From positions 56,124 to 120,123 of the forward strand of contig JAHFCF010000006.1 of assembly GCA_023249645.1 (NCBI GenBank): a DNA stretch of 64,000 bases, given 5' to 3'. The position numbers were made by a program, and so were the translations under genes. This DNA is from Elusimicrobiota bacterium (GTDB lineage: Bacteria > Elusimicrobiota > Elusimicrobia > UBA1565 > UBA9628). Position 1 is the stretch's first letter. Every line of letters begins with the position of its first letter. Below are positions 39,600-62,646 of the stretch, piece after piece. The notes below the pieces were generated by a model. It was not told the origin of the DNA. It saw only the letters and a list, made by a program, of their open reading frames with translations, and did no database searches.

Positions 39600-40271
39600 C
39601 TAAAAAAACGAGAGGAATTTATCCTCGTACTCGTCGAAGAGCCCGTATTCCCGCAGCTTGCGCCCCAGGGCCTCCAGGACCGATCGGTCTTTTCTCGCCG
39701 CGGCGAAAAGTTCCTCGATCTCTCGCCGACGGCGGCCGGCTTGCCTGCCCGTCGGATCGAAGAGTCCGCGGCGCTCGAGGTCGCGGACATGCACGGGGAA
39801 AGACCGCGCCGTGTGGTCCAGGGTGAATTTCATGAGGGCCAGGCCCCAGGCCGAGTCCGGGCAGCGGATGATGGCTTCACTCTGAGCCTCGCGTTTGCCT
39901 AGGTCAGCCTGGATGCGCTCAGCCACGTCTTGAGGAGACGCCGTGATGACACGGGTCGTGAGATCTTGGTTCTTGAAGCTGTATTCCAAAGCCCTCAGGA
40001 GGTCCCGGTAGGCGGGGGTGAGGAGTTCGGCGAATTCAGAGGCCTTGCGGCCGAAGCCCTGGAAGCGTTCCTTCAGCGCGTCGGGAGTGAGTATCTTCGG
40101 CTTTTGGGAGACGACCGTTCCGCGGCGCAGGCGCGTGCGGTCCGGGAGCTTGTCGATGGGAGAGAGCAGGTGATAGGCCAGATTCGTGGCGCCGAAGGTG
40201 GCCAGGGCATGGGAGGGCGCGTGGACGACCTCGATCTGGCGCAGGAGCTTCTGGAAGGCGGCGGTGTCCAT
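39600..40271 (-). CDS. Hypothetical protein
   Basis: 223-aa ORF with GC3-rich codon use. No recognisable domain. Confidence 0.4.
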   Translation of the reverse strand: MDTAAFQKLLRQIEVVHAPSHALATFGATNLAYHLLSPIDKLPDRTRLRRGTVVSQKPKILTPDALKERFQGFGRKASEFAELLTPAYRDLLRALEYSFKNQDLTTRVITASPQDVAERIQADLGKREAQSEAIIRCPDSAWGLALMKFTLDHTARSFPVHVRDLERRGLFDPTGRQAGRRRREIEELFAAARKDRSVLEALGRKLREYGLFDEYEDKFLSFF

Positions 40272-47068: not shown

Positions 47069-47496
47069 TTGTTCCTTATGGAGTCCACGATCTGCTGGTA
47101 GCCCGTGCAGCGGCACAGATGCCCGGCCATGGCCTTTCGGATGCCGCTGTGTTTTTTTGTTTGCAGGCGCGAGGCACTCATGAGGATTCCCGGCGTGCAG
47201 AAACCGCATTGGGAGCCGCCGTGCTTGAGGAAGGACTTCTGCAGGGGGTGGAGCTTGTCCGGCCGGCCGAGGTTTTCGACGGTCTCGATGGCGCGGCCCT
47301 GCATCTGCCCGATGGGGATCAGACAGCTGGTCGCCGGCAGGTCGTCGACGAGCACGGTGCAGGCCCCGCATTCGCCCTCCCCGCAGCCTTCCTTGGTCCC
47401 CGTGAGAGCGAAGTCCTCGCGCAACACGTCGATGAGCCTCTTGAAGGCAAGGCCCTTGTAGGTCCGCTTCTTGCCGTTGATCGTGAAAGTGATCAT
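47065..47496 (-). CDS. (2Fe-2S)-binding small subunit of the XDH-family oxidoreductase
   Basis: Sequences GCGEGECGACTVLVDD and CGFCTPG. Confidence 0.85.
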   Translation of the reverse strand: MITFTINGKKRTYKGLAFKRLIDVLREDFALTGTKEGCGEGECGACTVLVDDLPATSCLIPIGQMQGRAIETVENLGRPDKLHPLQKSFLKHGGSQCGFCTPGILMSASRLQTKKHSGIRKAMAGHLCRCTGYQQIVDSIRNK

Positions 47497-49724
47497 GGAG
47501 ACTTCCTCAGGAGCTCATGGCAGATCTTCTCGGGTAGGACCGGGATCTGGGAGAACCAGTGGCCGGTCGCATCCGCGATGGCCGCGACCACGGCCGGGGC
47601 CGGCAGGTCCATGGGCATCTCTCCCAAGCCTTTGGCGCCGTGGGGGCCGCGCGCATAGGGCTCCTCGACGATGGTCACGTCCATGGGCGGCGTGTCCTCG
47701 AAGGTGGGGATGAGATAGTTGGTGAGCTGGGAGTTCCTCATCCAGCCGCCCCGGAAGTCCGCATGCTCCCAAAGGGCCCACCCCAGGGCCTGGGCCGTGC
47801 CGCCCATGATCTGGCCTTTGGCGAGCCGCGGGTTGATGGCCTTGCCGATGTCCTGGGCGGTCGTGACCTGGCGCACGCGCGCCTCATAGGTGAGTTTGTC
47901 CACCTCCACCTCCACGGCCACGGCCGCGTAGGAGTAGACGCCGTAGGCCTCGCCGCGGAAGAGCTGGTCGTCCCAGGTGATGTCCGCGGGCTTCTCGAAT
48001 TGGACCTCGTAGCGTTTGACGGGTTCTCCGTCGCAGAGTACTTTAGCGGCCCGCTTGAGCGCCGCTTGCGTTCTGGGCAGCGTCCGGGAGGCCTTGAGGA
48101 GATCGGCTTTCAAGTCGTGAGCCGCGCGCTCGATGAGGCCCCCGATGACCATGGTGGTACGACTCGCCACGGTAGGCCCGCTGTTAGGAACCATCGCCGT
48201 GTCCGGGGTCTCGATGCGGATGAGGCTCGTAGGCAGGCCCAAGGCCTGGGCCGCGATCTGGGCGAAGATGGTCGATGTCCCCTGGCCCAGGTCGGTCGAG
48301 GCGGCCAGGATGGTGATGAGGCCGTCCTGAGAGAGAGAGACGCCGGCCCGGCTGGCCAGGGTGACCTCGCCGCTGCCGGTGAATCCCGCGCCGTGATGGC
48401 ACAGGGAGAATCCGATCCCGCGCCAGGTCGGGTTCGATCTTTTGGAGTTCCAGCGCGCGTATTCGCGCCGTTTCTGGGCATAGCGGCTTTTGGCGGCGCA
48501 GATCGAGAGGCACTTCAGGGCGCCCACGCTGTCCTTGAGATGCTGCCCCGTGGCCGTGAGGGTCCCGGGCCGCCAGGCGTTCTTGCGCCGCAGCTCCAGG
48601 GAGTCGATGCCCACGGCCAGGGCGACTTTCTCCATCTGGAGCTCGGCGGCGAATATGGCTTGCGGCACTCCGAAGCCGCGGAAGGCTCCGTTGGGCGGCG
48701 CGTTGGTCGCTACTGCGGTCGAGCGCACGCGGACGTGCAGGCATTCGTAGGCGCCGGTCGCGTGTAGGGTGGCGCGCGAGAGCACCACGGGAGAGCAGGT
48801 GGCGAAGGCCCCGCCGTCGATGGTGATCTCGATGTCCTGGGCCACGAGCCGGCCTTCCTTGGTGACCCCGGTCTTATGCCGGATGACCGCGGGATGGCGC
48901 TTGGTCGTGGAGGCCATGTCCTCCTCTCGGTCGTAGATGATCTTGACGGGTTTGCCGGCCTTGAGCGCGAGGAGCGCCGCGTGGCCCGCGATGATCGAGG
49001 GATAATCCTCCTTGCCGCCGAAGGCGCCTCCGGTCGCGGCCTGGATGATGCGGATCTTGTCCACGGGCTTGGCGAAGATCTTGACCAGGGCCTTGTGCAC
49101 GTAGTAGGGGCACTGCAGGGAGCCCAGGACCGTGATCGTGCCGTCCTTCTCGACCCAGGCGGCCACGCCTTGGTTTTCGAGGTAGGCCTGTTCCTGGTGG
49201 CCGACGCGGTATTCTCCCTGGATGACGAAGTCGGCCATGGCGAAGCCTTCCTCGATGTCGCCTTTCTCGACGAGGCAGGTCTTGAGCACGTTGTCCTCGC
49301 CGCGGATGACGTGCTTCCGGGCGAGGGAATCCTCGATGGAAAGGACGGGTTCCCACTCGTCGTATTCGACCTGGATGTGCTTGAGCGCCTCGGCGGCCTT
49401 GACTCTTTGCGCGTGGGCGACGAGGAGGATAGCCTGCTGGGGATGCATGACCAGGTCCTCGGTCAAAAGAGGCTGGTCGTGTTCGATGAAGAGGACGTTG
49501 TTGGCGCCGGGGATGTCCGTGCTGCGGGCGATGACGCACTCATCCCAGGGGAAGGATGCGTCGAAGGAGATCTTGGTGATGCGGCCGCGGGCGATCGTGG
49601 TGCGCAGGGTCGCGCCGAAGAGTCCGCCTGGGAACTGATAGTCATCGATGAACTTGGCCGTGCCGCAGAGTTTCTGCGGCGCATCCAGCCTTTCGACGCT
49701 GACCCCCACCTGGGCGGAGCTCAT
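47493..49724 (-). CDS. Molybdopterin-binding large subunit of the XDH-family oxidoreductase (xanthine dehydrogenase/aldehyde oxidoreductase type)
   Basis: 743 aa. Aldehyde-oxidase/xanthine-dehydrogenase a/b hammerhead and MoCo-binding regions (GGAFGGKE, AFRGFG). Confidence 0.85.
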   Translation of the reverse strand: MSSAQVGVSVERLDAPQKLCGTAKFIDDYQFPGGLFGATLRTTIARGRITKISFDASFPWDECVIARSTDIPGANNVLFIEHDQPLLTEDLVMHPQQAILLVAHAQRVKAAEALKHIQVEYDEWEPVLSIEDSLARKHVIRGEDNVLKTCLVEKGDIEEGFAMADFVIQGEYRVGHQEQAYLENQGVAAWVEKDGTITVLGSLQCPYYVHKALVKIFAKPVDKIRIIQAATGGAFGGKEDYPSIIAGHAALLALKAGKPVKIIYDREEDMASTTKRHPAVIRHKTGVTKEGRLVAQDIEITIDGGAFATCSPVVLSRATLHATGAYECLHVRVRSTAVATNAPPNGAFRGFGVPQAIFAAELQMEKVALAVGIDSLELRRKNAWRPGTLTATGQHLKDSVGALKCLSICAAKSRYAQKRREYARWNSKRSNPTWRGIGFSLCHHGAGFTGSGEVTLASRAGVSLSQDGLITILAASTDLGQGTSTIFAQIAAQALGLPTSLIRIETPDTAMVPNSGPTVASRTTMVIGGLIERAAHDLKADLLKASRTLPRTQAALKRAAKVLCDGEPVKRYEVQFEKPADITWDDQLFRGEAYGVYSYAAVAVEVEVDKLTYEARVRQVTTAQDIGKAINPRLAKGQIMGGTAQALGWALWEHADFRGGWMRNSQLTNYLIPTFEDTPPMDVTIVEEPYARGPHGAKGLGEMPMDLPAPAVVAAIADATGHWFSQIPVLPEKICHELLRKSP

Positions 49725-50668: not shown

Positions 50669-51445
50669 TTAGCCCCGGCAGTATTCCACCGCGTTGCGCA
50701 GCATCTCCAGGCCCACGGCCTGCTTGGCGAAAGTCTGGCGCGTCCAGTTGGGATGCTGGAAGGGCGTCGTGTAGCGCTCCGGATGCGGCATCATGCCCAG
50801 GCAGTTGCCCTCGGGATTGGAGAGGGCCGCGATGTTGAAGACCGAGCCGTCGGGATTGGCCGGATAGTCCGCCAGCTTGCCGTCGTCCGAGACGTACTGC
50901 ATGGCGATGGACTTGTTCTTCTTGAGCTCCTCGAGTTGGCGGGGGGATTTCAAGACCAGCTTGCCCTCGCCGTGCGCGACCGGCAGCTCGATCATCTCGG
51001 GCAGGCCCTTGAAGAAGAGGCACGAGCTCTGCGTGTTGAGCCTCAAGTGCACCCAGCGCGTCTCGAAGCGCCCGGAGTCGTTGGCCGTGAAGGATGCCGT
51101 CTGCTCGCCGGAATGCATGAGGGGCAGCGCCCCGGTCTTGACCAGGGCCTGGAAGCCGTTGGAGATGCCCAGCACCGGGCGGCTCAAGCGCACGAACTGG
51201 CGCAGCTCCTTGACGTAGAGCTTGAGCTGGTTGGCCAGGATCTTTCCCGCGGCCACGTCGTCGCCGTAGGAGAAGCCGCCCGGCAGGACCAGGATGTCGT
51301 AGTCCAACAGATGAACCTTGCCCGCTTTAAGGAGATTGATGTGCACGCGCTCGGGCGCGCCGCCAACGGATGAGAAGGCCTCGGCGGTCTCCGCGTCGCA
51401 ATTCGTTCCCGGAGCGCGCAGGACGAGGACCTTGGGCCTCTTCAT
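50669..51445 (-). CDS. purQ: Phosphoribosylformylglycinamidine synthase subunit PurQ (glutaminase)
   Basis: Class I glutamine amidotransferase: LPGGFSYGDD, catalytic SNGFQAL, HPER. ATG 51445 overlaps the purL stop. Confidence 0.9.
   Translation of the reverse strand: MKRPKVLVLRAPGTNCDAETAEAFSSVGGAPERVHINLLKAGKVHLLDYDILVLPGGFSYGDDVAAGKILANQLKLYVKELRQFVRLSRPVLGISNGFQALVKTGALPLMHSGEQTASFTANDSGRFETRWVHLRLNTQSSCLFFKGLPEMIELPVAHGEGKLVLKSPRQLEELKKNKSIAMQYVSDDGKLADYPANPDGSVFNIAALSNPEGNCLGMMPHPERYTTPFQHPNWTRQTFAKQAVGLEMLRNAVEYCRG
50670..50694. repeat. Direct repeat, right copy: the authentic purQ 3' end
   Basis: Encodes ...NAVEYCRG* of PurQ on the minus strand. Confidence 0.8.
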
Positions 51446-53601
51446 CCCAGCCTCCGCGGCAGGACTTCCTGCCAGGCGGTCTTCAATTCTGCGAGGTCTG
51501 CTTCCATGCACACGCAGCCGTCCAGGCCCATGACCTTGAGCACCGGGTTGGCCACGGTGGTGCCCACGCGCTTGACCGCCGCGCCGCGCAGGGCCTTGAG
51601 GAAGGCCGCCTCGCGCTCCGGCGCGACCTCGAGGAGCAGGCGGCTGGCGCTCTCCGAGAAGAGAAGGACCTCGTCCGAGTAGATGGGCGCGCGGCGCGGG
51701 ACCTTGTCCAGATCGAGGATGGCGCCGAATTCTCCGGAGAATCCCATCTGGGCGGCGCAGACCCCGAGGCCTCCGGCGGCCAGATCGTGAGCGGAGAGGA
51801 CCAGGCCTTTGGTCATAGCTGCGTATACGGCTTTGAACGCAGCTATGGCCGAGCGCGGATCGACGGACGGGACGCTGCAGCTCCAGCAGCGTCCGCAGAT
51901 CTCGTGGAAAAGAGAGGCGCCGAGCTCCTCCGCGGTTGAACCCACGAGGTAGAGGGCGTTGCCCGGGCCTTTGATATCCATGGTCAGGGCCTTTCGCGCG
52001 TCGGCGACAGGAGCCAACGCGCTCACGAGCAGGGTGTCAGGGCTTTGGGTTCGGAGGCTGAGCTTCGCTGACAACAGCGGCACGCCGTATCCCTGGGCGG
52101 CGCTGCGCAGGCCGAGCGCCGCGCTGACCAAGGCGCCGAGCCTGGCCGGATTGTCGCTGCTGCCGACGAGGTTGGCGCAGAAGGCCGCGCGCGAGACGTC
52201 CGCGCCGACGCAGAGGAGGTTGCGCAGGGCTTCATCCGCGCAGGCCATGGCCATGCGGCCGGGGTGGGACTTGCCATAGGCCGGGTTGAGGCCGTGGCTC
52301 GCCGCGAAGCCGCGCCAATCCTTGGGATCTGCGGCCGGCCGGACCACGCAGGCGTCTCCCGGGCCGTCATGGCGCACGCCTTGCAGCGGCTTGATGAGGA
52401 CGCCCGCCTGCGCCTCGTGATCGTACTGGCGGATGATCCATTCGCGGCTGCAGACGCTCGCATGGGTGAGGCACTCTTTGAGGATGTGGGCGAGGGTCTT
52501 CTTGTGGCCGGGTGCTTTGGCGGGCGCTGGTTTGGCGGTTTGCCAGACCGCCCTCTGTTCAATGGCGGGGCGGCCTTCGAGCAAGAAGCGCATGTCGAGG
52601 CTGATCGCGGGCTCATGATCGAAGAAAGCCTCCAGTCGGCCGGTGGACGTGATCTCTCCTAGGACAGCCGTTTCGCAATCCTCGGAGGCGAAGAGCTCCT
52701 CGAAGGCCCTGCGCTTGGGCGCCGGCACCACGAAGACCATGCGCTCTCCTCCCTCGGAAAGCCAGATCTCCCAGGGCTTCATGTCCGCGGAGAGCTGCGG
52801 GACCTTTCCAAGGTCGATCTTGGCTCCCCGGCCGCTGGCCAGGCGCAGGATGGCCGATGCCAAGCCGCCCGTGGAGCAGAAGACCTGTCCGCGGTGGAGT
52901 TTTTTGTCGCGGGCCGCCAGCAGAGCGTCTAAGAGCTTTTTGGTGTTGAGAGGATGCGAGAGCTTGACCTCGGGGTCCGAGGCATCTCGGTCCGTGCGGC
53001 TGCCGGCGACCAGGAGGAGGTCTCCCGGTTTGGCCTTCTCTGCGGATCTGCCCGAGGGCAAGAAGCCCACGGTGCCGCAGAGGATGAGGGGGTCCTGGCG
53101 ATGCGCTTCGTCGAGCCACAGGGCCCCCGAGGCCATGGGCACGCCGAGACGGTTGGTGTAGTCCCGCGCGCCCAAGACCGATTCCTGCAGGATGCGGCGC
53201 GAGGGAAGGTCGTCTGGCGGGGCGCAGAAGAAAGCGGTGGTGGCGAGCACGGGCTTGGCTCCCAGGTCCGTGGAGAGGGCTTGGCCGATGGCCGAGCCCA
53301 TCGCGGCTTGGGCCGCGCCGTAAGGCTCGACCGCACAGGGAGATTGGCAAGCCTCGACCGCAAAGGTCAGCGACCCGCGGCCGAAAGGCAGGAAGCCTTC
53401 GGCCGGTTCGAAGAGATCCTTGATCAGGATGGTCTTTTTTCCGTCGTTGTAGCGGATGGGGCCCAGAGCGTCGCGGCGCTTCTGCGACCAGACTTGTGAG
53501 ATGGTTTTGAGCTCGGCCAAGGTCGGCGCGCGTTTCAAGGCCTTGAAATGCGCCTGGATGGCGGCGAGTTCTTCCGTGGTCGGGGCGGTCGTCTCGGACA
53601 T
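51442..53601 (-). CDS. purL: Phosphoribosylformylglycinamidine synthase subunit PurL
   Basis: 719 aa with duplicated AIRS-like domains of the PurL/PurM superfamily. Confidence 0.9.
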   Translation of the reverse strand: MSETTAPTTEELAAIQAHFKALKRAPTLAELKTISQVWSQKRRDALGPIRYNDGKKTILIKDLFEPAEGFLPFGRGSLTFAVEACQSPCAVEPYGAAQAAMGSAIGQALSTDLGAKPVLATTAFFCAPPDDLPSRRILQESVLGARDYTNRLGVPMASGALWLDEAHRQDPLILCGTVGFLPSGRSAEKAKPGDLLLVAGSRTDRDASDPEVKLSHPLNTKKLLDALLAARDKKLHRGQVFCSTGGLASAILRLASGRGAKIDLGKVPQLSADMKPWEIWLSEGGERMVFVVPAPKRRAFEELFASEDCETAVLGEITSTGRLEAFFDHEPAISLDMRFLLEGRPAIEQRAVWQTAKPAPAKAPGHKKTLAHILKECLTHASVCSREWIIRQYDHEAQAGVLIKPLQGVRHDGPGDACVVRPAADPKDWRGFAASHGLNPAYGKSHPGRMAMACADEALRNLLCVGADVSRAAFCANLVGSSDNPARLGALVSAALGLRSAAQGYGVPLLSAKLSLRTQSPDTLLVSALAPVADARKALTMDIKGPGNALYLVGSTAEELGASLFHEICGRCWSCSVPSVDPRSAIAAFKAVYAAMTKGLVLSAHDLAAGGLGVCAAQMGFSGEFGAILDLDKVPRRAPIYSDEVLLFSESASRLLLEVAPEREAAFLKALRGAAVKRVGTTVANPVLKVMGLDGCVCMEADLAELKTAWQEVLPRRLG

Positions 53602-53603
53602 CC

Positions 53604-54065
53604 TCAGGAATCCTCGCGGACGCTGAAGCTGTGGAGGGCGGGATTGGCCAGCAGGCGGTTGACGGCTTTCTCAAGCTGGACGCATCCGCACCGGCCCGAG
53701 ATGTGGTAGGCCAGGCCGCAGCGCACGGCGAGGGGCTGGGGGACGCCGAGCTCCAGAAGGGCATGAGCGGCGCTTTCTCCCCGCGAGTCCGCGAGAGTGG
53801 ATTTGAGCCAGACCTCCACGCGCCAGGCGTTGCCGCCGTTGGAAGACGGCGCGGCGGAGCTCAGGATGCGGAAGTCCTGCGTCACGCAGTCGCACAAGAG
53901 CTCGCGCGCCGCGGTCTGGGCGTGGCTCAGATTGAGCGCGCCGCGGAGCTCATAGAGCTTGCCCACGCGCACGCGATGCGCGGTGAAGACGCCCGCCGCG
54001 CGCAGCAGTTCCAAGGCCCGGGCCCCGTCGACGTCGGGCAGTTCGGGCTTCAAGGTCGCTTCCAC
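53604..54065 (-). CDS. purS: PurS, tandem duplicated PurS domains (start codon uncertain)
   Basis: Two consecutive PurS-like modules (YVVEATLKPELPDVDG...VRVGKLYEL and WRVEVWLKSTL...LANPALHSFSVRE). The ORF-track start at 54284 would put a Ser/Pro/Arg-rich N-terminus over the tRNA-Gln promoter and gene. GTG 54065 is taken as a provisional start. Confidence 0.55.
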   Translation of the reverse strand: MEATLKPELPDVDGARALELLRAAGVFTAHRVRVGKLYELRGALNLSHAQTAARELLCDCVTQDFRILSSAAPSSNGGNAWRVEVWLKSTLADSRGESAAHALLELGVPQPLAVRCGLAYHISGRCGCVQLEKAVNRLLANPALHSFSVREDS

Positions 54066-54282
54066 GACGTATCTCCCGTTGGCGAGAGCGGGGCGGCGGG
54101 TGATTTCAGGAAGGGGGGAAGGGAGGACGGCGGGGTCGGAGCTGGGGCTCTTTCGGTCTCGGCTTGCGATGGGCGACACGCTGCACCTCCCGGGCCGGCT
54201 CGGCGATTTGCGAATGGATAATTTATCAATTTTGGAGTGGACTGGCAAGGACGGCCGGGCTTCTGCTAAGATATTTGCGCTC

Positions 54283-54356
54283 ACCGATCGATTGCGGGAT
54301 GGTGAAATGGTATCACGGGTGGCTCTGAACCACTTATTCTAGGTTCGAATCCTAGT
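54283..54356 (+). tRNA. tRNA-Gln (anticodon CUG)
   Basis: Folded by hand. Acceptor TGCGGGA/TCCCGCA with U1-A72 and G73 (Gln identity). D-arm GTGA/TCAC. Anticodon stem GGTGG/CCACT with loop CTCTGAA. T-arm CTAGG-TTCGAAT-CCTAG. CCA encoded. Confidence 0.85.
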
Positions 54357-54386
54357 CCCGCAGCCACTTTAGTCGTTATAAGGACT

Positions 54387-54413
54387 GCTGAACAAAAAGC
54401 CCTCCGAAAGGAG
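54387..54413 (+). terminator. Rho-independent terminator after tRNA-Gln
   Basis: Sequence AGCCCTCC gaaa GGAGGGCT followed by TTTTTTG. Confidence 0.8.
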
Positions 54414-54434
54414 GGCTTTTTTGTATCATTATTC

Positions 54435-55697
54435 ATGTTTCGGTTCGCGTTGGGCCTCGCGCTTCTCTTCCCGTTGATCGGCTGCTCCGGCACGCAGCTA
54501 CGGGAGGAGGAACGCCAACCTGTCCGCCTCGATATCGGGCTCATGCCCCTCCTCAGCAGCGGCGCTCCCGTTGAGCCGAAAGACACCGACACCCTCATCG
54601 CGCGGCTCCAAGCCATGAGCATCTTCGATTCGGTCCGCTCGGTCGACTCGTCACACTCTCCCGATGTCGATCTGGTTCTTGCGCTGGAGGCGCACCTGGC
54701 CTCGGTGTCTCTGCGCATCTATGGAGCGGCTTCCCAGGAACAACTCTACGTCGGGAAGCTCCGGATGGACTGGAACGCCGATTACGGCATCAATGCCGTC
54801 TATGTGGCGCGGGAAATCATCGGGAAGTTCGGCCCCGGAACGCCGGAATTCAAAAAACTCATCGCCGCCCGCGCGACGCGTCCCGCGCGGCAAGCGCCCG
54901 GTCTCGAAACCCCCCATCTGTTCCAATCGGACATCGACCGGCCGGGCTACCGCATGGCCGAACACCCCGACGATTTCGCCCTTGTCGTGGGGGTCGAGAA
55001 GTATTCGGACCTGCCGGAGGCCCGGTTCGCTGGACGTGACGCTGAGGCGGCCAAGGACCACTTGCTGGCTCTTGGCTTCCCGAGCCGGAACATCGTCCAA
55101 TTGAGCGACGACAAGGCCGGCTACAAGAGCATCGAAAAATATCTGGAAACCTGGCTGCCCCGGAACAGCAACGAGAACAGCCGCGTCTTCTTCTACTTCT
55201 CGGGCCATGGCGCCCCGGATGTGCGGACTGGGCAGGCATATCTTCTCCCCTGGGACGGAGACCCGGGCTTCCTGGAGACAACCGGCTATCCGGTCAAGCG
55301 TCTCTATGAGAAATTGTCCACGCTCAAGGCCAAAGAGGTCATCGTGGCTTTAGACGCCTGCTTCTCGGGGGCGGGCGGACGGTCGGTCCTGGCCAAAGGG
55401 GCTCGGCCTTTGGTTATGAAGGTGGACACCGCGACAGCGCCTCAAAACCTGACCGTGTTCGCAGCGGCCTCGGGCGAACAAATCACCAGCACGCTCGAAG
55501 ACCAGGGGCACGGGACCTTCACCTACTACTTCCTGAAAGGCTTGAGTGGTGGAGCCAAGGACGCCTCCGGACGGGTCACGACGCAGGCCCTTTACGACTA
55601 CCTCAAGCCCAAGGTGCAGGACGCGGCCCGGCGGCAGAACCGAGACCAGGAGCCGGTCCTGCACGGCCAAGGCGACCGGGAACTCGTTCGGTTCTGA
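54435..55697 (+). CDS. Caspase-like (peptidase C14 family) lipoprotein
   Basis: Lipobox LIGCSG. C14 catalytic dyad context: FFYFSGHGAPD (His) and VALDACFSGAGG (Cys). 420 aa. Confidence 0.65.
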   Translation: MFRFALGLALLFPLIGCSGTQLREEERQPVRLDIGLMPLLSSGAPVEPKDTDTLIARLQAMSIFDSVRSVDSSHSPDVDLVLALEAHLASVSLRIYGAASQEQLYVGKLRMDWNADYGINAVYVAREIIGKFGPGTPEFKKLIAARATRPARQAPGLETPHLFQSDIDRPGYRMAEHPDDFALVVGVEKYSDLPEARFAGRDAEAAKDHLLALGFPSRNIVQLSDDKAGYKSIEKYLETWLPRNSNENSRVFFYFSGHGAPDVRTGQAYLLPWDGDPGFLETTGYPVKRLYEKLSTLKAKEVIVALDACFSGAGGRSVLAKGARPLVMKVDTATAPQNLTVFAAASGEQITSTLEDQGHGTFTYYFLKGLSGGAKDASGRVTTQALYDYLKPKVQDAARRQNRDQEPVLHGQGDRELVRF

Positions 55698-55758
55698 TAG
55701 CGTCCTATTCGGGTTGCGGACAACTCGGCAGAATTTTAAGTCGCTTCTTCTCGCCTGA

Positions 55759-56007
55759 CTAGATGAAGTCTCCGCCGCCGTTGATCGTGCCGCGGATGGA
55801 TGAGTGCTCGGAGCTGGCGCTGAATTTCTTGACGATCTCCGGCGGCCAGCCTCCGGACTTCGGGAAGTTCAGCACGTGTCCGGGCTGGAAGGCGTCGTTG
55901 ATGTCCTCCGTTTGGATCGCGAGGAAGATCGTGTTGATGTCGTCGATGGAGAAGCCGGTCTTATGCGCCAGTTCCCCCACGAGGGCGCCGTACCTGGGGT
56001 CGTTCAA
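55759..56007 (-). CDS. Small hypothetical protein (82 aa, TTG start)
   Basis: GC3-rich codon usage on the minus strand, consistent with real coding. No recognisable domain. Start codon non-ATG. Confidence 0.3.
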   Translation of the reverse strand: MNDPRYGALVGELAHKTGFSIDDINTIFLAIQTEDINDAFQPGHVLNFPKSGGWPPEIVKKFSASSEHSSIRGTINGGGDFI

Positions 56008-56089
56008 AAAAACCGGCAGTTCATTGATCGCTCCATGGCATTGTCAGGTCTGAGATTTGCTGTAATCTCCTTCTTCCAGGAGGAAACGA

Positions 56090-56856
56090 TCATGCCGATC
56101 AAGGGCGCTGAGCTGGCGTTGGGCCTGACCCTTCTGTTGTGCGCGCACGGTGCGTGGGCCGAGCCGGCGCATGCCAAGTACGGGCTCTCAGCCGTCCCCT
56201 TGGCCCAGGAGCATTCCTATCTCCAGGATCCCAAGCAGCCGGCGCCGGATTTCTGGAACTTGAACGCCTACTATGTGTCGCAGCCCGATGAGAGCGCCTG
56301 CTCGGCGGCCGCGGTCTCCATGGTCCTCAACGCCTTGCTCAACGCCGAGCGGCCGCGCGGCGATCAGGAACGCAACATCACGCCGGCGGGGCTCCTGAAG
56401 AAGATCCAGGGGGATTGGAAGCCGCGGCTCGCGCCGAAGGGTTTGGACGGCCGCCACGGCGTCACTCTGGGACAGCTCGAGATCTTCCTCAAGGCGGGCC
56501 TCAGCGAATACTCCCGATTCCCATTCATTGTGGAAAGGCATGAGGTCGCGGCAGTCGATGCCCAGGGGCTTGAGCGCCTGCGCGAGGCCCTGCGCGAGAA
56601 CGAGAGGAATGCGCACGACTTCATTCTGCTCCATTTCGTCCAGGACGAACTGACCGGGGCGCCGGGCGGACCGTTCCCCCATGTCTCCCCGGTCGGGGCC
56701 TATGACGCGGTCCGGCGGAAGGTCCTGATCTTCGACGTGGATCGAGATTGGTACGAGCCTTATTGGGTCTCGGATGAGGATCTGCTCCGGGCGCTGGCGC
56801 ATCCCACCAAGGCTTTCGGCCGCGGCGGCGTCCTTCGGGTCGGACGCGCTCCGTGA
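56090..56856 (+). CDS. Secreted phytochelatin-synthase-like protein (peptidase C83 / papain-fold)
   Basis: ATG 56090 with signal peptide (MPIKGAELALGLTLLLCAHGAWA). Sequence YVSQPDESACSAAAVSMVLNAL resembles the PCS catalytic-Cys motif (Q..YCGLASLSMVLNAL). Sequence PHVSPVGAYDAVRRKVLIFDVDRDWYEPYWVS resembles the PCS His/Asp region (HFSPIGGYH..LILDVARFKYPPHWV). The ORF-track 5' extension to 55804 is rejected. Confidence 0.5.
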
Positions 56857-56890
56857 ATATTTTGTATAAGAATATTGATTTCCAGGAAAG

Positions 56891-56917
56891 TTCAGTCAAA
56901 AGTCAAGACCTGACCCC
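56891..56917. repeat. Single-arm copy (TTCAGTCAAAAGTCAAGACCTGACCCC) of the 20039-20093 inverted repeat
   Basis: 27/27 nt identical to 20067-20093. Immediately followed by the AAGGAGG RBS and the ATG of the ferritin-like gene. Confidence 0.8.
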
Positions 56918-56928
56918 AAGGAGGGGCG

Positions 56929-57432
56929 ATGAAACAATCCGCGTTGCCTGAAGTTTTCCAGTTTGCGTTGAAGATGGAAGCCGACGGAGAGAGGCTGTAT
57001 CGGGCTATGGCCGCCAAGACGGCGGATGCCGGGGTGAAGAGCATCTTGAACGGCCTGGCCGACGACGAGATCAAGCATGCGCGCATCATCCGCGAGATGG
57101 CCCAGGGCGCCGTCCCTGAGATGGCGCAGACCCATATCCTGCAGGACGCCAAGAACGTGTTCTCAGGCTTGGACGTGAAAAAAGGCTTTGAAGCCGCGGG
57201 GGCCGATCAGGTCGCGCTCTACCGGCAGGCGCTGGATGTGGAGACCAAGTCGCGGGACTACTACAAGGCCCAGGCGGCGCAGGCCCAGGAGAAGGGCGCC
57301 CGGGATCTCTTCGAGAGGCTTTCCGCAGAAGAGGCGCGGCACATGTTCCTCGTGGACAACATGCTGCAATTCATCCAGCGGCCCAAGATGTGGCTCGAGA
57401 ACGCGGAGTTCAACCACCTCGAAGAGTATTAG
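56929..57432 (+). CDS. Ferritin-like diiron protein (rubrerythrin family, no rubredoxin domain)
   Basis: Two ExxH diiron motifs (DDEIKHARII and EEARHMFLVD). 167 aa. Confidence 0.7.
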   Translation: MKQSALPEVFQFALKMEADGERLYRAMAAKTADAGVKSILNGLADDEIKHARIIREMAQGAVPEMAQTHILQDAKNVFSGLDVKKGFEAAGADQVALYRQALDVETKSRDYYKAQAAQAQEKGARDLFERLSAEEARHMFLVDNMLQFIQRPKMWLENAEFNHLEEY

Positions 57433-58611
57433 TCACAGCACTCGGCACCAAATGACCTTGAGGTACTCTCCTTCCGGAGAGTCGACCGCTACGGGATGAT
57501 CCGGTCCGGCGCCGCTTTTGCGCAGGATCTCCACGCGCCGGCGCGCTGAGCCGGCCGCGGTGCGCAGGGCCTGCAGGAAATCCTCCCAGCCGAGAAGACC
57601 GCTGCAGGAGGCTGTCACGAGGAAGCCGCCTTCCTTAATAACGGAGAGAGCCAGACGGTTTAAATCAACGTATTTCTGCCTTCCGAGCGTATAGCCCTCC
57701 CGCGAGGCGATCATCTTGTAGGGGTCGAGCACGACCACGTCGTAGGTCTGATGGTTGGCCGCCATCTGGCGCAGGTAGGGGAAGGCGTCCACGCAGACGG
57801 TCTCGATGTCGACCTTGTTGAGCCGGGCGTTCTTCTTGCAGAGCTCGCAGGCTTCGGGGTCGAGCTCCACGGCCGTGACCTCCTGGGCGCCTCCCAGCTT
57901 CTTGGCATAGAGCCCGAAACCGCCGGTGTAGCTGCACACATCGAGCACCTTGCGTCCTGGACAAAAGGGCACAAGGGCGCTGCGGTTGTCGCGCTGATCG
58001 CAGAAGAAGCCCGTCTTGTGCCCTGTCGCGAGGTTGACCTCGAAATCCACCCCGTTTTCCGTGACGCGGGTGAAGCTCGGACCGCTGGGCTTGAGCCGGA
58101 AGCCTTCCATGCTCTCGGTATGGCTGCTGGCCCGGTGGAGGAATTTCGCGTTGGGATAAAGAGAGGCCAAGGCTCTCTCGATGCGGGCCGCCTGCTTGAA
58201 CATCCCCAGGGAATAGAACTCGAGCACGAGGAAGTCCCCATAGCGGTCCACGATGAGGCCGGGCAGGCCGTCGCCCAGGTCATGGACGATGCGGTAGGCA
58301 TCGGTCGCGGCGTCGAGCTTGAGGATGTCGCGGCGCAGCTCGACTGCGCGGCTGATGCGCCGGCTGAAGAAGGCCTCAGCGTCGAAGTGCGCTAAATCGC
58401 GGTCCACCAGCCTCAGGGTGATGAGGCTTTTGGGATTGTAGAGGGCCACGCCGTAGGGCGCGTCCGCCTTGTCGTAGACCGCGACCAGGTCGCCCGCCTT
58501 GGCCTTGGGATCGGTCTCGTCGATCATGCGCTTGAAGATGTTGGCCGAGGCCGAGGCGGAGCGCAGCTTGACCCACGGCAGGGGAGAGATGTGTCCGGCG
58601 GGCGCGGGCAT
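57433..58611 (-). CDS. rlmI: Class I SAM-dependent rRNA methyltransferase, RlmI/RlmK-like (PUA + MTase)
   Basis: Sequences VLDVCSYTGGFGLYA (SAM motif I), VVLDPYK, and an N-terminal PUA-like region. Confidence 0.7.
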   Translation of the reverse strand: MPAPAGHISPLPWVKLRSASASANIFKRMIDETDPKAKAGDLVAVYDKADAPYGVALYNPKSLITLRLVDRDLAHFDAEAFFSRRISRAVELRRDILKLDAATDAYRIVHDLGDGLPGLIVDRYGDFLVLEFYSLGMFKQAARIERALASLYPNAKFLHRASSHTESMEGFRLKPSGPSFTRVTENGVDFEVNLATGHKTGFFCDQRDNRSALVPFCPGRKVLDVCSYTGGFGLYAKKLGGAQEVTAVELDPEACELCKKNARLNKVDIETVCVDAFPYLRQMAANHQTYDVVVLDPYKMIASREGYTLGRQKYVDLNRLALSVIKEGGFLVTASCSGLLGWEDFLQALRTAAGSARRRVEILRKSGAGPDHPVAVDSPEGEYLKVIWCRVL

Positions 58612-58613
58612 GG

Positions 58614-60104
58614 TCAGCTCAGGGCGAAGAGGCGGCGGATGCGGGAGAGCAGGTCTCCGCGCGCGTCTTCGAGCCGTCGGCGGCCGGCGTCTTCCTGCAG
58701 GGCCGCGCGCGCGGTCTTCAGCTCCCCTTGGCGCTGGGCCAGGGTCGCCGAGATGCTCACCGCGATCTCCGGCCGCTTTTTAAGGATGTCTTTGAAGTCC
58801 TCGCGCTCGAGCCTGTAGGCGAGCACGTCGCTCAAGGCCACGATGGTCGCCGAGCGCGGCTCGCCGGTCATCAGAGACATCTCGCCCGCGAAGTCGCCGG
58901 GCTTCAGGCGCGCCACGCTGCGCGAGCGTCCGCCTTCCTCCAAACGCACCTCGGCCTCGCCTTCCTGGATGAGGAAGAACCAGTCCGCCGAGCCGCCCTG
59001 GCGGGCGATGGCTTCCGTGCGGGCGAAGGGCGCGGGCTTCAATCGTTGGGCCAGGGTCTCGATCTCCTCGTCGCTCAGGGCCTTGAAGATGTCCACGCCG
59101 CGCAGGGCCTGGCTGCGGCGCTGGAGTTCCGCATCCAGGGAAACGGCCTGCGGCGCGACTGTGAGGCAGCGCGCCGGGACGGCTAGGGAGATGCCGGCGC
59201 GGGTCAGGGCGAAGAAGGCGCGCAGCCGGACCTCGGAGGCGACTTCCTCGGACCGCGCCAGATCGCTCAGCCAGAAGCGGGCTCTATAGGACGCGTGGCT
59301 TGCCGTCAGCGCATTGAGGAGGCAATCCGGCGGCGGGTCAGCGGCCACGCCCGGGGGCGGGTCCTCGCGCAGGGCGGACTCCACGACGCCGATGACCTGG
59401 GTGGGGAGCCGGCCGGCATCAGCCTCGAAGTCGACTTTCATGAGACGAGGAGAGACTCGTCCCTGCCGGCGGCCCAGGACCATGACCACGCTCTTGATGA
59501 GGGTCCCGTTGGGGATGATGACCGTATCTCCGCCATCCGTCTCGATCGTGGTCTGGCGCCAGCGGATCTCGCGGACCACGCCCTCATCGACTCCCATGCG
59601 GATGCGGTCTCCGGGGGAGAGGGAATTTTCCAGGTGCAGGACCATGCCGCCCAGGATGTTGCCCAGCGTGTCCTGCAAAGAGAAGGCGATGACGGCCGTC
59701 ACGACCGCCGAGGTCGCCAGGATCCCGGTGAGGTTGGCTCCCTCGTGAGAGAGCACGGTCAGGGTGATGGCGACATAGGCCCCGGCCAGGATGAGGTCTT
59801 GGATGAGAGCCGCCAGGGTCAGCCGCAGTCCCAGGAGGATGAGGTCGAAGGCGACGGCCGCCGAGGTGTTGACCAGGGCGAGAGCCAGCAGGATGTGAGA
59901 GAGGCCGCGTACGATGCGGCAGAGGCCCGAATCCAGCGGAAGGCCCATGCGGCTGAAGATCGCGGCTGCGAAAAGTCCCGCAGCGGAAATCAGCGCGAGC
60001 AGAGCCGCCGCGGCGACGCGCCGGCGGGTGGCCGGCGCCAGGAGGTAGAGGAATCCCAGCGCGACCAGAAAGAGAGGGATGAACCAGAGATGGAGGAAGT
60101 TCAT
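58614..60104 (-). CDS. MscS-like mechanosensitive channel fused to a C-terminal cyclic-nucleotide-binding domain
   Basis: N-terminal TM helices plus the MscS beta-domain (DRIRMGVDEGVVREI...TVIIPN). C-terminal cNMP-binding motif (GDFAGEMSLMTGEPRSATIVA). Confidence 0.7.
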   Translation of the reverse strand: MNFLHLWFIPLFLVALGFLYLLAPATRRRVAAAALLALISAAGLFAAAIFSRMGLPLDSGLCRIVRGLSHILLALALVNTSAAVAFDLILLGLRLTLAALIQDLILAGAYVAITLTVLSHEGANLTGILATSAVVTAVIAFSLQDTLGNILGGMVLHLENSLSPGDRIRMGVDEGVVREIRWRQTTIETDGGDTVIIPNGTLIKSVVMVLGRRQGRVSPRLMKVDFEADAGRLPTQVIGVVESALREDPPPGVAADPPPDCLLNALTASHASYRARFWLSDLARSEEVASEVRLRAFFALTRAGISLAVPARCLTVAPQAVSLDAELQRRSQALRGVDIFKALSDEEIETLAQRLKPAPFARTEAIARQGGSADWFFLIQEGEAEVRLEEGGRSRSVARLKPGDFAGEMSLMTGEPRSATIVALSDVLAYRLEREDFKDILKKRPEIAVSISATLAQRQGELKTARAALQEDAGRRRLEDARGDLLSRIRRLFALS

Positions 60105-61455: not shown

Positions 61456-62646
61456 TCAAGGGTACAGCAGGTATTTTTCGCGGGTCTGGGCGAATCGCCG
61501 CCAGCTTATCTCGTATTCCGACAGGAGGTCTTGCGGGGTTTTTTTAGAGTTGAAAGCGGCCTGGAAGATATTGGCTCCCACCACGTTGGTGGAGCCTGTT
61601 TCCCGCATGTCAAAGCCTTTTTGATGGCGCAGGGCGTAGACAGCATGGACGAATACGTCGAGACTGCGCACCTGGCGGCGGTCGCGGACTTTGAGCGCCA
61701 CCCCGCGGCAGGCGTGGCCGGCATAGGGTTCCTCGCTGGGGGTCCGCTTTTCAACCGCGAAATCCATGCCGGCGATCTTAGCGGCCTTCAAGGCCTTGAC
61801 CACTTTCTTGGCATCCATCCAAGGCGCGCCGAACCAGAGGAAGGGCGAGTCGGTCCCCCGGCCCACGGAGATGTTGGTGGCTTCAAAGCAGCCGATGCCG
61901 GGATAGACGATCGCTGCGTCCAGATCTTTGATGTTGGGAGACGGCGCGATCCAATCGTAGCCGGTCTGGTCGAAGAGCATCTCCCGGTTCCAACCTTGCA
62001 AAGCGATGATCGTCGGCTTCTGGAGTCCTTTCACATCGGCGTTGAGCCGGGCCATCTCCGCCGGTGTGAGGCCGTGGCGCGTCGGCACTGGGAAATAGCC
62101 GGTCGGGTCCTTGGGATCGGGATCCTCCAGGACATGGCCTTCCATCACCGTGCCGCCGATGGGATTGGGGCGGTCCAGGACCACGAATCCTATATGGCGC
62201 TTGGAGGCTTCTTCTTGGGCCATGGCCATGGTGGCGAGATACGTGTAGAAGCGAGTTCCCACGTCCTGGATGTCGAAGACCAGAGTGTCTATCCCGCGCA
62301 GCATCTCATCCGTGGGCTGTTTGGTCTTTCCGTAGAGGCTGTAGATGGGCAACCCGGTCTTTTTATCCTTAGAGTCATCCACCGGCGCGCCGGCTGGTTG
62401 ATCGGCGCGCAGGCCGTGCTCCGGACCGAAGAGCGCGACGAGAGTGAGCTGGTCTGAAGCGAAGAGAACATCGATCGCGCTCCTGCCGGAGCGGTCCACG
62501 GCGGTCTTGTTGGTGATGAGCCCGACCCTCTTGCCCTTGAGCTGCTGGAAGTGGTCGCGCTCAAGGACGTCGAGGCCGCTCATGAAGCCCGAGGCCGGCT
62601 GCGCCGCGCAGAGCGCCAACGAAAGCAGAGGGAGGAAGAGCTTCAT
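61456..62646 (-). CDS. DUF1343 family protein (exo-beta-N-acetylmuramidase NamZ-like), secreted
   Basis: Signal peptide, then GKRVGLITN...LFGPEHG...[17 protein letters not shown], characteristic of DUF1343. Confidence 0.6.

Follow-up and report, generated by a model that had tools for sequence, protein, structure and literature searches.

Bacterial proteins related to phytochelatin synthase (PCS) are usually treated as glutathione/metal enzymes. A described member is Alr0975 (NsPCS) of Nostoc sp. PCC 7120, a 'primitive' half-molecule with a papain-like fold, in which Gln64, Arg173, Lys206 and Tyr207 are strictly conserved (PMC3855540). Arg173 and Lys206 correspond to Arg152 and Lys185 of AtPCS1, which are essential and have been proposed to line a second-substrate cavity; the AtPCS1 variants R152K and K185R keep at most 0.6% of the activity (PMC3855540). 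Prokaryotic caspase homologues (PF00656) combine (F/Y)SGHG and D-x-C-x-SG motifs and a caspase-hemoglobinase fold with modular architectures. Many of them carry a hydrophobic stretch at the N-terminus, probably a signal peptide, and zero were scored in Elusimicrobia in the survey of Asplund-Samuelsson et al. 2012 (PMC3501461). Finally, tRNA-anchored islands carry non-housekeeping genes directly 3' of a tRNA. In the element of the Elusimicrobia genome GCA_016212885.1 (L033), two tRNA-Ser(CGA) copies, identical over their 3' approximately 57 nt and different in their 5' halves, bracket primase and helicase genes.

The locus analyzed here, in a 64-kb stretch of an Elusimicrobiota contig (the window), resembles the tRNA-anchored islands in having non-housekeeping genes directly 3' of a tRNA-Gln, and the original prediction took it for a possible small accessory island. 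We consider instead, with a probability of about 0.7, that the stretch is ordinary Elusimicrobia chromosome in which the caspase-like and PCS-like genes were made neighbours by local rearrangement or deletion and not by insertion of a mobile element. The left context consists of the purine-biosynthesis genes purQ-purL-purS (50669..54284, minus strand), which were recognized by Pfam and by tblastn to locus L002 and are divergent from the tRNA-Gln. The tRNA-Gln (anticodon CUG, plus strand) was confirmed by ARAGORN and Rfam (RF00005, 63.7 bits, E = 1.3e-12), although the gene itself occupies 54293..54366 and thus begins 10 nt 3' of position 54283, where the tRNA segment had been predicted to start. 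The strong terminator attributed to this tRNA is also present (54394..54426, plus strand): a perfect 12-bp inverted repeat (54394-54405/54410-54421) encloses a 4-nt GAAA loop and is followed by a T-run, and the hairpin folds with -22.6 kcal/mol (z = -5.4 versus shuffled sequences). It ends 9 nt before the ATG of the caspase gene. Because an A-run precedes the stem and a T-run follows it, the terminator is potentially bidirectional. A simple terminator scan did not pick up this hairpin, probably because the A/T-extended stem absorbed the T-run.

The gene downstream of the terminator (54435..55697, plus strand) encodes a protein of 420 aa, predicted to be a C14 caspase-like lipoprotein with a His/Cys dyad. 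This assignment was upheld by Pfam, the sequence motifs, an AlphaFold model and a fold search. Positions 3-224 of the 233 in the Peptidase_C14 profile (PF00656) match residues 181-410 (E = 5.9e-13; 49.5 bits, cut-off 21.4), and an NCBIfam caspase-domain model scores 86 bits, under its subfamily cut-off of 140. The domain contains His258 in FYFSGHG and Cys309 in LDACFSG, and in an alignment of 20 homologues Cys309 is invariant and His258 is at least 90% conserved; Asp307, two residues N-terminal of the catalytic Cys, is invariant as well. The model (pLDDT 81.6) matches MALT1, GSU0716 (3BIJ), metacaspases and caspases in Foldseek (E from 3e-10 to 1e-7), and the protein as modelled has the caspase-hemoglobinase fold of the prokaryotic homologues, whereas at the sequence level it resembles solved metacaspases only marginally (E about 0.06). 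The motifs and the modular architecture are also shared with these homologues. The protein studied here differs from those surveyed in being a predicted lipoprotein with an unusually conserved protease domain. Judged by direct reading for an N-terminal signal peptide ending in [LVI][ASTVI][GAS]C, its leader MFRFALGLALLFPLIGC17 ends in the lipobox L-I-G-C17 (Cys17 codon at 54483-54485), and an LxGC consensus lies near the N-terminus of the family alignment and is found in 5 of 7 inspected homologues.

In contrast to the zero count of the 2012 survey, Elusimicrobia metagenome-assembled genomes (MAGs) now show thousands of caspase homologues: this family returned 3024 matches in MAG data, and the named ones are nearly all from Elusimicrobia. 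Its members join a conserved C14 domain to interchangeable N-terminal modules, which in the protein described here is a variable alpha/beta module (about residues 30-150) and in other members ankyrin, Sel1 or PDZ; the protease domain is 80-84% identical between proteins with differing N-terminal modules. From these features, the protein would be exported by the Sec pathway and lipidated at Cys17, which would tether it to a membrane facing the periplasm, where it may cut envelope proteins by means of the His258/Cys309 dyad. Metacaspases and MALT1 likewise have an Asp two positions N-terminal of the catalytic Cys, and from what is established about their S1 pockets Asp307 predicts a preference for cutting after Arg or Lys; it is the only hint to such a P1 specificity in the caspase-like protein. 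Autoprocessing or activation probably takes place in the loop at residues 311-330, which is invariant, predicted to be disordered and carries Arg316, Lys321 and Arg324. A caspase-based anti-phage defence system was also considered. Its partner genes are missing here: PADLOC returned only a domain-level match of this protein to a generic 'caspase' model (3.1e-17) and no match for the neighbouring proteins; the predicted periplasmic lipoprotein topology argues against a cytoplasmic defence role too.

The second exported protein is encoded at 56092..56856 (plus strand; 254 aa). The open reading frame exists as predicted, with its start at 56092 and not at 56090, from where the frame meets stop codons; an AGGAGG Shine-Dalgarno (SD) sequence lies upstream. 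That it is a secreted, papain-fold protein of the PCS type (PF05023, MEROPS C83-type) with a Cys/His/Asp triad was supported by Pfam (Phytochelatin, E = 6.3e-20; 71.7 bits, cut-off 24.9), by alignment with Nostoc Alr0975 (phmmer against Alr0975 chains, E = 8.5e-12), and by structure prediction (pLDDT 91) followed by Foldseek, where 6TH5, 2BU3 and 2BTW were the top matches (E = 7.6e-14, TM 0.8). A signal peptide spans residues 1-23 with cleavage at AWA|EP, and all 14 aligned homologues have an N-terminal hydrophobic leader. By phmmer and MAFFT, the oxyanion residue Gln64 and the triad Cys70, His197 and Asp215 (codons at 56299-56301, 56680-56682 and 56734-56736) align with Gln64, Cys70, His183 and Asp201 of NsPCS, and these 4 residues are invariant in 54 homologues. 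Like NsPCS, the protein is single-domain (both about 220-250 aa), lacks a C-terminal Cys-rich domain and begins with a leader that the 'mature' crystallized form of NsPCS does not have ('mature' appears in the NsPCS PDB titles, and relative to 2BTW the 6TH5 chain is shortened N-terminally by about 35 residues). However, the two proteins are only about 21-31% identical, and the one studied here carries an insertion of 3 residues ahead of the catalytic His and extends further at the C-terminus by about 20 residues, which end in a conserved FGxGG motif.

Another difference concerns the second-substrate cavity. At the positions of NsPCS Arg173 and Lys206, the Elusimicrobia PCS-like clade has Gln184 (invariant) and Trp220 (at least 90% conserved), and no basic residue was found in the segment DFILLHFVQDELTGAPGGPFPH. 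Replacement of the two essential basic residues suggests that the protein is probably an exported hydrolase and not a phytochelatin polymerase; it is a member of the fold and family, not demonstrably a phytochelatin synthase. After export with a cleavable signal peptide, it would form an acyl-enzyme with a small peptide that would then be hydrolyzed, in a hydrolase- or deglycylase-type reaction rather than polymerized to phytochelatin, the direction of the reaction being deduced. Downstream of this gene, a rubrerythrin/ferritin-like protein of 167 aa (56929..57432; Pfam Rubrerythrin, 1.8e-13) is encoded on the same strand, 72 bp 3' of the PCS-like gene and with its own SD sequence. Its codon score is 0.256 and it lies outside any island. 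The right anchor of the locus is a gene for an RlmI-like 23S rRNA m5C methyltransferase (57433..58611, minus strand; Pfam, NCBIfam).

Between the caspase-like and PCS-like genes, an ORF of 82 codons with a TTG start is present on the minus strand (55759..56007), as predicted; public gene calls give a 73-aa version that starts from the GTG at 55980. An in-frame stop lies 12 codons upstream of the TTG. A phmmer search of 1.84 billion representatives yielded 31 matches and revealed that the ORF corresponds to the C-terminal ~70 residues of a family of secreted Cys-rich proteins of 320-343 aa ending in SSEHSSIRGTINGGGDFI. The other matches are at least 309 aa long, and in the relatives that match the whole fragment the match sits at their C-terminal end. 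The SSEHSSIRGTINGGGDFI motif occurs also as internal repeats in a Micrarchaeota protein. As a weaker addition to the tentative proposal made below on periplasmic cysteine peptidases, this C-terminal motif may act as a recognition or processing signal. The N-terminal part of such a gene is absent throughout the 64-kb window. The ORF is thus probably a gene relic, the orphaned 3' end of a gene for a ~340-aa secreted Cys-rich protein, and such a cut-off end would mark where the DNA was rearranged or deleted, with the breakpoint at about 56000-56045, some 50-90 bp 5' of the PCS start. The junction at this ORF would then separate a left block (purQLS, tRNA-Gln, caspase and truncated gene) from a right block (PCS, rubrerythrin-like gene and rlmI).

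The right block has counterparts elsewhere. The host RlmI is 73-75% identical to its orthologues in Elusimicrobia MAGs (tblastn), and in GCA_026388095.1 (L024/L025) and GCA_016212885.1 a PCS homologue lies 4.5 kb from rlmI. These two genomes are diverged from each other (83% identity for RlmI and 72% for the PCS homologue), and for one genome of a few Mb, the probability that the two genes fall within 5 kb of each other by chance would be roughly 0.3%. Since a PCS homologue is found this close to rlmI in both genomes, the position of the PCS-like gene looks inherited, although its orientation relative to rlmI is inverted in the window compared with both. The closest PCS homologue (P0002, 75% identity) is found in a different neighbourhood without rlmI. 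For the tRNA-Gln side, comparisons covered near-identical contigs (L001 and one ENA contig) and distant relatives. Three metagenome contigs with an identical tRNA-Gln have no neighbours in common with the window on either side, the 5' neighbour of the tRNA differs among contigs bearing the identical tRNA, and a purL genome scan gave one distant Elusimicrobia genome, in which no tRNA-Gln lies closer than 10 kb to purS.

The composition of the locus is in line with that of its surroundings. Of the 39 window genes, with codon scores from -0.08 to 0.42, the caspase gene ranks 11th (0.222; GC 0.628, GC3 0.78) and the PCS gene 22nd (0.292; GC 0.656, GC3 0.82), so that the check for atypical composition found both normal for the window (GC 0.62); the GC profile is 0.58-0.65 across the region and 0.56-0.70 in the flanks. 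Between the tRNA-Gln and rlmI lie only the C14 gene, the small ORF fragment, the PCS-like gene and the rubrerythrin-like gene, and the ORFs on either side, between 40 and 63.6 kb, are housekeeping genes or have no domain match. No recombinase or transposase domain was found by Pfam in the ORFs of that same range. The original prediction had already found no downstream repeat of the tRNA 3' end, and we obtained the same result: no direct repeat of this end lies in the 4.5 kb of 54200-58700, and the 25-nt and 19-nt 3' ends of the tRNA-Gln have no second match in the 64-kb window when up to 3 mismatches are allowed. A foreign phylogenetic affinity of the caspase and PCS cargo was not observed either, the named PCS homologues also being nearly all from Elusimicrobia, the host phylum. 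With no integrase, no 3'-end repeat, mid-range GC content and codon usage and homologues in the host phylum, a small accessory island at the tRNA-Gln is not supported.

An older version of the island idea holds that a small islet entered at the tRNA-Gln 3' end and brought in the caspase gene, perhaps together with the ~340-aa gene and the PCS gene, after which the integrase and att sites decayed. The caspase gene does lie directly 3' of a tRNA, the truncated gene shows that the locus has been rearranged, and the occurrence of caspase homologues in five different neighbourhoods suggests a positionally mobile family. In addition, on one metagenome contig (L028) a gene for a large serine recombinase directly adjoins the 3' end of the identical tRNA-Gln, so that this tRNA can serve as a site of integration in the lineage. 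The absence of a recombinase and of a repeat, the normal composition and the overwhelmingly host-phylum homologues of both proteins nevertheless make this history improbable. The PCS-rlmI linkage common to two other genomes argues that at least the PCS end is no insertion, and the missing synteny on the 3' side of the tRNA is uninformative because the 5'-side neighbourhoods are equally unconserved. Unlike the elements of L033 and L028, the window shows no repeat, recombinase or compositional shift, and since real elements in these related loci do show repeats or recombinases, they provide a calibration for calls based on a tRNA plus odd genes.

Two other explanations give the neighbouring genes a present function. 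The caspase lipoprotein and the PCS-like protein, predicted to be a peptidase pair, might work as one unit in the envelope, acting together or on each other, with the small ORF as a possible substrate or regulator. Both are predicted to be exported and are cysteine hydrolases by family, their genes are on the same strand 394 bp apart, and the conserved end of the ORF family (...SSIR-GTINGGGDFI) includes an Arg, in principle a possible cleavage site for a caspase-type enzyme specific for Arg. Yet the two families are never adjacent in nine homologue neighbourhoods, neither in the four of PCS (P0002, P0010, P0017, P0027) nor in the five of caspase (P0133, P0135, P0165, P0218 and the L033 paralogue). 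They come closest in L033, with a caspase-domain gene of different architecture about 8 kb away from the PCS homologue. In the window, the opposite-strand ORF stands between the caspase and PCS genes, the PCS gene has its own SD sequence, the full-length members of the ORF family that we examined have neither a caspase nor a PCS gene nearby, and the ORF lacks the signal peptide of its family. Such a module is therefore very improbable. Less remote, yet still rather unlikely, is that the 82/73-aa ORF has been kept as a small protein in its own right, a separate copy of the C-terminal module of the ~340-aa family. Its reading frame is intact, its GC3 is 0.89, few window genes have a higher codon score, it is 64% identical to residues 272-340 of a full-length homologue (P0242) over 70 residues including the terminal motif, and public pipelines call it as a gene. 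Against this, it is the sole short form among the 31 matches and lacks both the signal peptide and the Cys-rich N-terminal 270 residues present in every other member. A recognizable SD sequence is found at neither candidate start, a weak point given that many genuine genes here also lack one.

From the truncation, the neighbourhoods, the composition and the taxonomy of the homologues, we infer the rearrangement history of an ordinary Elusimicrobia chromosome segment, in which the caspase-like and PCS-like genes are unrelated, lineage-typical genes for exported cysteine-peptidase-family proteins. As an 'island' the locus matters little, the outcome being a negative result that strikes one candidate mobile element off. 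More modest points concern the proteins. The lipoprotein caspase homologues of Elusimicrobia form a large family in which the protease domain is highly conserved and the N-terminal modules can be exchanged. We also propose, tentatively and as a possibility that we rate below even odds, that the Elusimicrobia-wide PCS-fold clade is a distinct exported cysteine hydrolase whose substrate is other than glutathione; another small peptide of the envelope or the environment would be an example. An exported, phylum-level clade in which the two essential basic residues are missing suggests another use of the PCS fold in the envelope. If this is true, the clade would constitute, together with the module-swapping caspase lipoproteins, an uncharacterized, phylum-typical repertoire of periplasmic cysteine peptidases in these groundwater bacteria.

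The only tRNA gene that ARAGORN detected in the 64-kb window is a tRNA-Gln(CUG) gene (54293-54366, + strand), which was confirmed by Rfam with 63.7 bits. A perfect 12-bp inverted repeat with a GAAA loop (54394-54405/54410-54421) starts 28 bases 3' of this gene, with an A-run before it and a T-run after it, and the hairpin folds as RNA at -22.6 kcal/mol (z = -5.4 vs dinucleotide shuffles). The inverted repeat, the T-run and the fold bear out the strong terminator of its own that had been ascribed to the tRNA gene, an obvious hairpin that a simple consensus terminator scan overlooked. An Rfam scan of 53.5-58.7 kb returned nothing beyond the tRNA, and two sub-threshold Phe_leader matches were discarded as a mere reflection of the terminator hairpin. 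The caspase gene that follows has a TATCAT box that ends 5 nt before its ATG and overlaps the end of the terminator.

The original prediction took this tRNA gene for the possible anchor of a small accessory island containing a caspase-like lipoprotein gene (54435-55697, +), a small ORF on the opposite strand (ORF82, 55759-56007, -), and a gene for an exported phytochelatin-synthase (PCS)-like protein (56092-56856, +). No recombinase or transposase domain was found between tRNA-Gln and rlmI (57433-58611, -), nor in any of the scanned ORFs between 40 and 63.6 kb. The surroundings comprise purQ/L/S and genes for S-adenosylhomocysteinase, MscS-type channels, a molybdoenzyme, NamZ, a PLP enzyme, and RlmI. 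A repeat of the tRNA 3' end, already reported as missing downstream, was indeed absent from the next 4.5 kb and, at up to 3 mismatches, from the whole window. The GC content was 0.58 to 0.65 across the region vs 0.56 to 0.70 in the flanks. In a score of each gene's synonymous codon choice relative to the rest of the window genes, the caspase gene (0.222) ranked 11th and the PCS-like gene (0.292) 22nd of 39 genes, in a range of -0.08 to 0.42; their GC3 values were 0.78 and 0.82, respectively. Both genes are thus within the window range and show no deviation in composition. The host is an Elusimicrobia bacterium, with an rlmI 73-75% identical to that of Elusimicrobia MAGs. Homologue searches gave 3024 matches for the caspase-like protein and 347 for the PCS-like protein (the listed ones at 45-76% identity), and the named matches were almost all from Elusimicrobia in both cases.

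The linkage between PCS and rlmI recurs in other genomes. In GCA_026388095.1 (L024; L025 is from another sample) and in GCA_016212885.1 (L033), 4.5 kb separate an upstream rlmI orthologue from a PCS homologue that is 57-61% identical to the window protein, and in L024 and L033 the interval holds a Y1-transposase-like gene, a Ser/Thr kinase gene, and an ion-channel gene. In the window, the PCS-like gene ends 0.6 kb from rlmI and the arrangement is inverted. L024 and L033 have diverged (83% identity in rlmI, 72% in PCS), and we estimate the chance of a single co-location within 5 kb at roughly 0.3%, assuming a genome of a few Mb. Because PCS divergence scales with rlmI divergence and the linkage is recurrent, the PCS end of the putative island would most simply be inherited. 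In both of them (L024, 7276-8768; L033, 9252-10720), there is a 4-nt overlap between the PCS homologue and the stop codon of the Ion_trans gene upstream, and small unknown genes that are conserved come next (205 aa, DUF4404, and a Cys-rich protein); the cluster looks like an operon missing from the window.

With no recombinase, no att repeat, in-range composition, Elusimicrobia homologues, and PCS-rlmI linkage elsewhere, every testable island hallmark fails at the locus, and the accessory island is not supported. We regard an old insertion at tRNA-Gln that has since ameliorated as improbable. tRNA genes in two other contigs do have mobile-element features beside them. On the metagenome contig Ga0268283_1007479, the end of a gene for a 495-aa large serine recombinase (76-1622; Resolvase + Recombinase + Zn_ribbon_recom) overlaps the 3' end of a tRNA-Gln identical to that of the window, and this tRNA gene may be where a mobile element integrates in a related organism. 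In L033 (JACRDO010000083.1, 12512-20185), two tRNA-Ser(CGA) copies with an identical 3' ~57 nt and different 5' halves flank ~7.5 kb with genes for, among others, an AEP-type primase and DEAD and RecQ helicases. The stretch, which follows the PCS homologue at a distance of 1.8 kb downstream, is a textbook example of an integrated element anchored at a tRNA gene; L024 has a single tRNA-Ser only.

Synteny was analyzed with a PurL-anchored genome scan (L002-L023), in which one distant Elusimicrobia genome (44% identity) had purS-L-Q and no tRNA-Gln within 10 kb. The other genome matches were nearly all archaeal PurL proteins of about 27-34% identity. This archaeal excess is perhaps a sampling effect of the peptide-pattern search, and the window PurL (51442-53601, -) could be of an archaeal-like type. 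The neighbouring 'PurS' ORF (53604-54284, -) encodes 226 aa (191 aa according to public gene calls) vs the 77 positions of the Pfam PurS profile, and its two PurS-like stretches and N-terminal extension indicate a duplicated or fused form. A search of metagenome contigs for exact copies of the 74-nt tRNA-Gln yielded three short contigs, two of them with <330 bp 3' of the tRNA, and none has a neighbour in common with the window on either side. Since these contigs are unlike the window on both sides, lack of synteny is general at this evolutionary distance and carries no specific information on the 3' side. A molybdenum-cofactor neighbourhood common to the window and the locus L037 was looked for by tblastn and not found.

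The caspase-like and PCS-like proteins had also been described as a pair. Their genes were never adjacent in the neighbourhoods of the PCS homologues P0002 (the closest, 75% identity), P0010, P0017, and P0027, and the caspase homologues P0165, P0218, P0133, and P0135 provided four further unrelated neighbourhoods with no adjoining PCS gene. The sole proximity was in L033, where a caspase-domain paralogue of different architecture lies about 8 kb from the PCS gene. With adjacency seen in none of these neighbourhoods, a functional pairing of the two proteins is very improbable. A defence-system reading of the locus was rejected because no partner genes of such systems are present around the caspase gene.

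ORF82 exists as described, with a TTG start and 82 aa (73 aa in public gene calls). A word-indexed homologue search with it retrieved only itself. Exhaustive phmmer against 1.84 billion cluster representatives gave 31 matches, all of at least 309 aa apart from the window's own 73-aa product. Matches spanning the full fragment use their extreme C-terminus, residues 13-82 of ORF82 being 64% identical to residues 272-340 of the homologue P0242. These relatives are 320-343 aa long, start with a signal peptide, are Cys-rich in their N-terminal half, match no Pfam domain, and share the C-terminal end ...SSEHSSIRGTINGGGDFI. P0242-P0248 and P0257 belong to this uncharacterised secreted family and all terminate in ...SSEHSSIRGTINGGGDFI-COOH; in P0244 and P0245, the latter from a Micrarchaeota archaeon MAG, the same ~19-residue motif occurs three times internally. 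The motif may be a sorting signal, a processing site, or a binding repeat. tblastn of five full-length family members against the window recovered the C-terminal piece only, and homology ends within the first ~10 codons of ORF82, with an in-frame stop 12 codons upstream of the TTG. Since only the C-terminal piece is present and its homology ends near the start, we consider ORF82 to be the orphaned 3' remnant of a longer gene; the breakpoint would thus lie at about 56000-56045, 50-90 bp before the PCS start codon. The coding statistics of ORF82 are excellent (GC3 0.89, codon score 0.41), which suggests that the truncation is recent or that the piece has been retained; we think retention rather unlikely. 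Elsewhere, no caspase or PCS gene lies near the full-length members of the family. In the simplest history, a rearrangement or deletion would have joined a left block (purQLS, tRNA-Gln, caspase, and the ~340-aa gene) to a right block (PCS, rubrerythrin-like gene, and rlmI), cutting the ~340-aa gene.

Shine-Dalgarno (SD) analysis of ORF82 is uninformative on its translation because many genuine window genes also lack an SD. Many of them have a TAnAAT-like box that precedes the start codon by only about 7-20 nt (examples: 9796, 12808, 20113, 22462, 39600-40271(-), 45566, 47493-49724(-), 58614-60104(-), and 61456-62646(-)), which suggests that leaderless or very short-leader mRNAs may be frequent in the host organism. 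A minority have a perfect AGGAGG, including the genes at 40355 and 49877, the PCS-like gene, and the rubrerythrin-like gene (56929-57432, +). At 57432/57433, where the rubrerythrin-like gene meets the convergent rlmI, there are zero intergenic bases between the listed ORF ends, leaving no room for terminators.

The 420-aa caspase-like protein matches Pfam Peptidase_C14 over residues 181-410 (E = 5.9e-13, 49.5 bits vs cut-off 21.4), and its N-terminus (MFRFALGLALLFPLIGC) consists of a signal peptide and a canonical lipobox. The catalytic residues are His258 (FYFSGHG) and Cys309 (LDACFSG). Across 20 aligned homologues, Cys309 and Asp307, two positions before it, are invariant, and at least 90% keep His258; the homologue P0202 has a Tyr at the His position. 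phmmer against PDB sequences found no match, and the 20-sequence profile found only marginal metacaspase matches (E about 0.06), besides a Mediator subunit 15 match rejected as a low-complexity false match. The AlphaFold model (pLDDT 81.6) matched MALT1 paracaspase, Geobacter GSU0716, metacaspases, and caspases in a fold search (E 3e-10 to 1e-7). The C14 caspase-like lipoprotein assignment is therefore confirmed by Pfam, lipobox, His/Cys dyad, and fold. The model contains an alpha/beta module (about residues 30-150), predicted with confidence, and, directly after the catalytic Cys, a loop (311-330) that is predicted with low confidence yet hardly varies in sequence (SGAGGRSVLAKGARPLV). Between proteins whose N-terminal modules are wholly different (ankyrin repeats, Sel1, PDZ, unknown), the caspase domain has 80-84% identity, whereas homologues with the same module as the window protein are only about 50% identical overall, a pattern that reflects either very strong constraint or protease-domain exchange among paralogues. 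Several homologues (P0122-P0240) share a contig, such as P0129 with P0138 and P0126 with P0223. In metacaspases and MALT1, the S1 pocket specific for Arg/Lys is formed in part by an acidic residue that precedes the catalytic Cys by two positions. The window protein would be a membrane-tethered, periplasm-facing endopeptidase with specificity for basic residues, steered to its targets by the N-terminal module, for which paralogues have ankyrin, Sel1, or PDZ instead; the disordered invariant loop with Arg316, Lys321, and Arg324 may be an autoprocessing or activation site. A 2012 survey of prokaryotic caspase homologues listed none in Elusimicrobia (PMC3501461), a result since overtaken by MAG data.

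The PCS-like ORF encodes a signal-peptide protein as predicted, of 254 aa, although its true ATG, preceded by its own AGGAGG, is at 56092 and not at 56090; translation from the predicted coordinates runs into stop codons. It matches Pfam Phytochelatin (E = 6.3e-20, 71.7 bits vs cut-off 24.9) and aligns with Nostoc Alr0975 (NsPCS; 2BTW, 6TH5) at E about 1e-11. Alr0975 structures were also the top fold-search matches of its model (pLDDT 91) by a wide margin (E = 7.6e-14, TM 0.8; next fold E = 2.6e-5). Gln64, Cys70, His197, and Asp215 align with NsPCS Gln64, Cys70, His183, and Asp201 and are all invariant in 54 homologues, so that the PCS/C83-type call with its Cys and His/Asp triad stands. The N-terminus is a signal peptide (MPIKGAELALGLTLLLCAHGAWA, followed by EP), and all aligned homologues have hydrophobic leaders. 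Export is not unusual for the family, because the Nostoc prototype was crystallised as a 'mature' form without about 35 N-terminal residues. NsPCS Arg173/Lys206 (AtPCS1 Arg152/Lys185) are basic, line a proposed second-substrate cavity, and are described as strictly conserved in PCSs, and the AtPCS1 R152K and K185R mutants retain no more than 0.6% activity (PMC3855540). In the window clade, HMMER and MAFFT agree in placing an invariant Gln184 and an at least 90% conserved Trp220 at these positions, and the whole pre-His segment contains no basic residue. Because of this replacement, we file the protein as a PCS/C83 fold-family member and not as a phytochelatin synthase. Most likely, it would hydrolyse a small periplasmic peptide by way of an acyl-enzyme on Cys70; that the exported clade with its remodelled pocket has a distinct enzymology is a tentative prediction, which we consider somewhat unlikely.

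Automatic annotation already labels related MAG proteins 'caspase family protein' and 'phytochelatin synthase family protein', and the two window proteins are members of known families, new as members only. The locus is no system, but a junction of unrelated genes.
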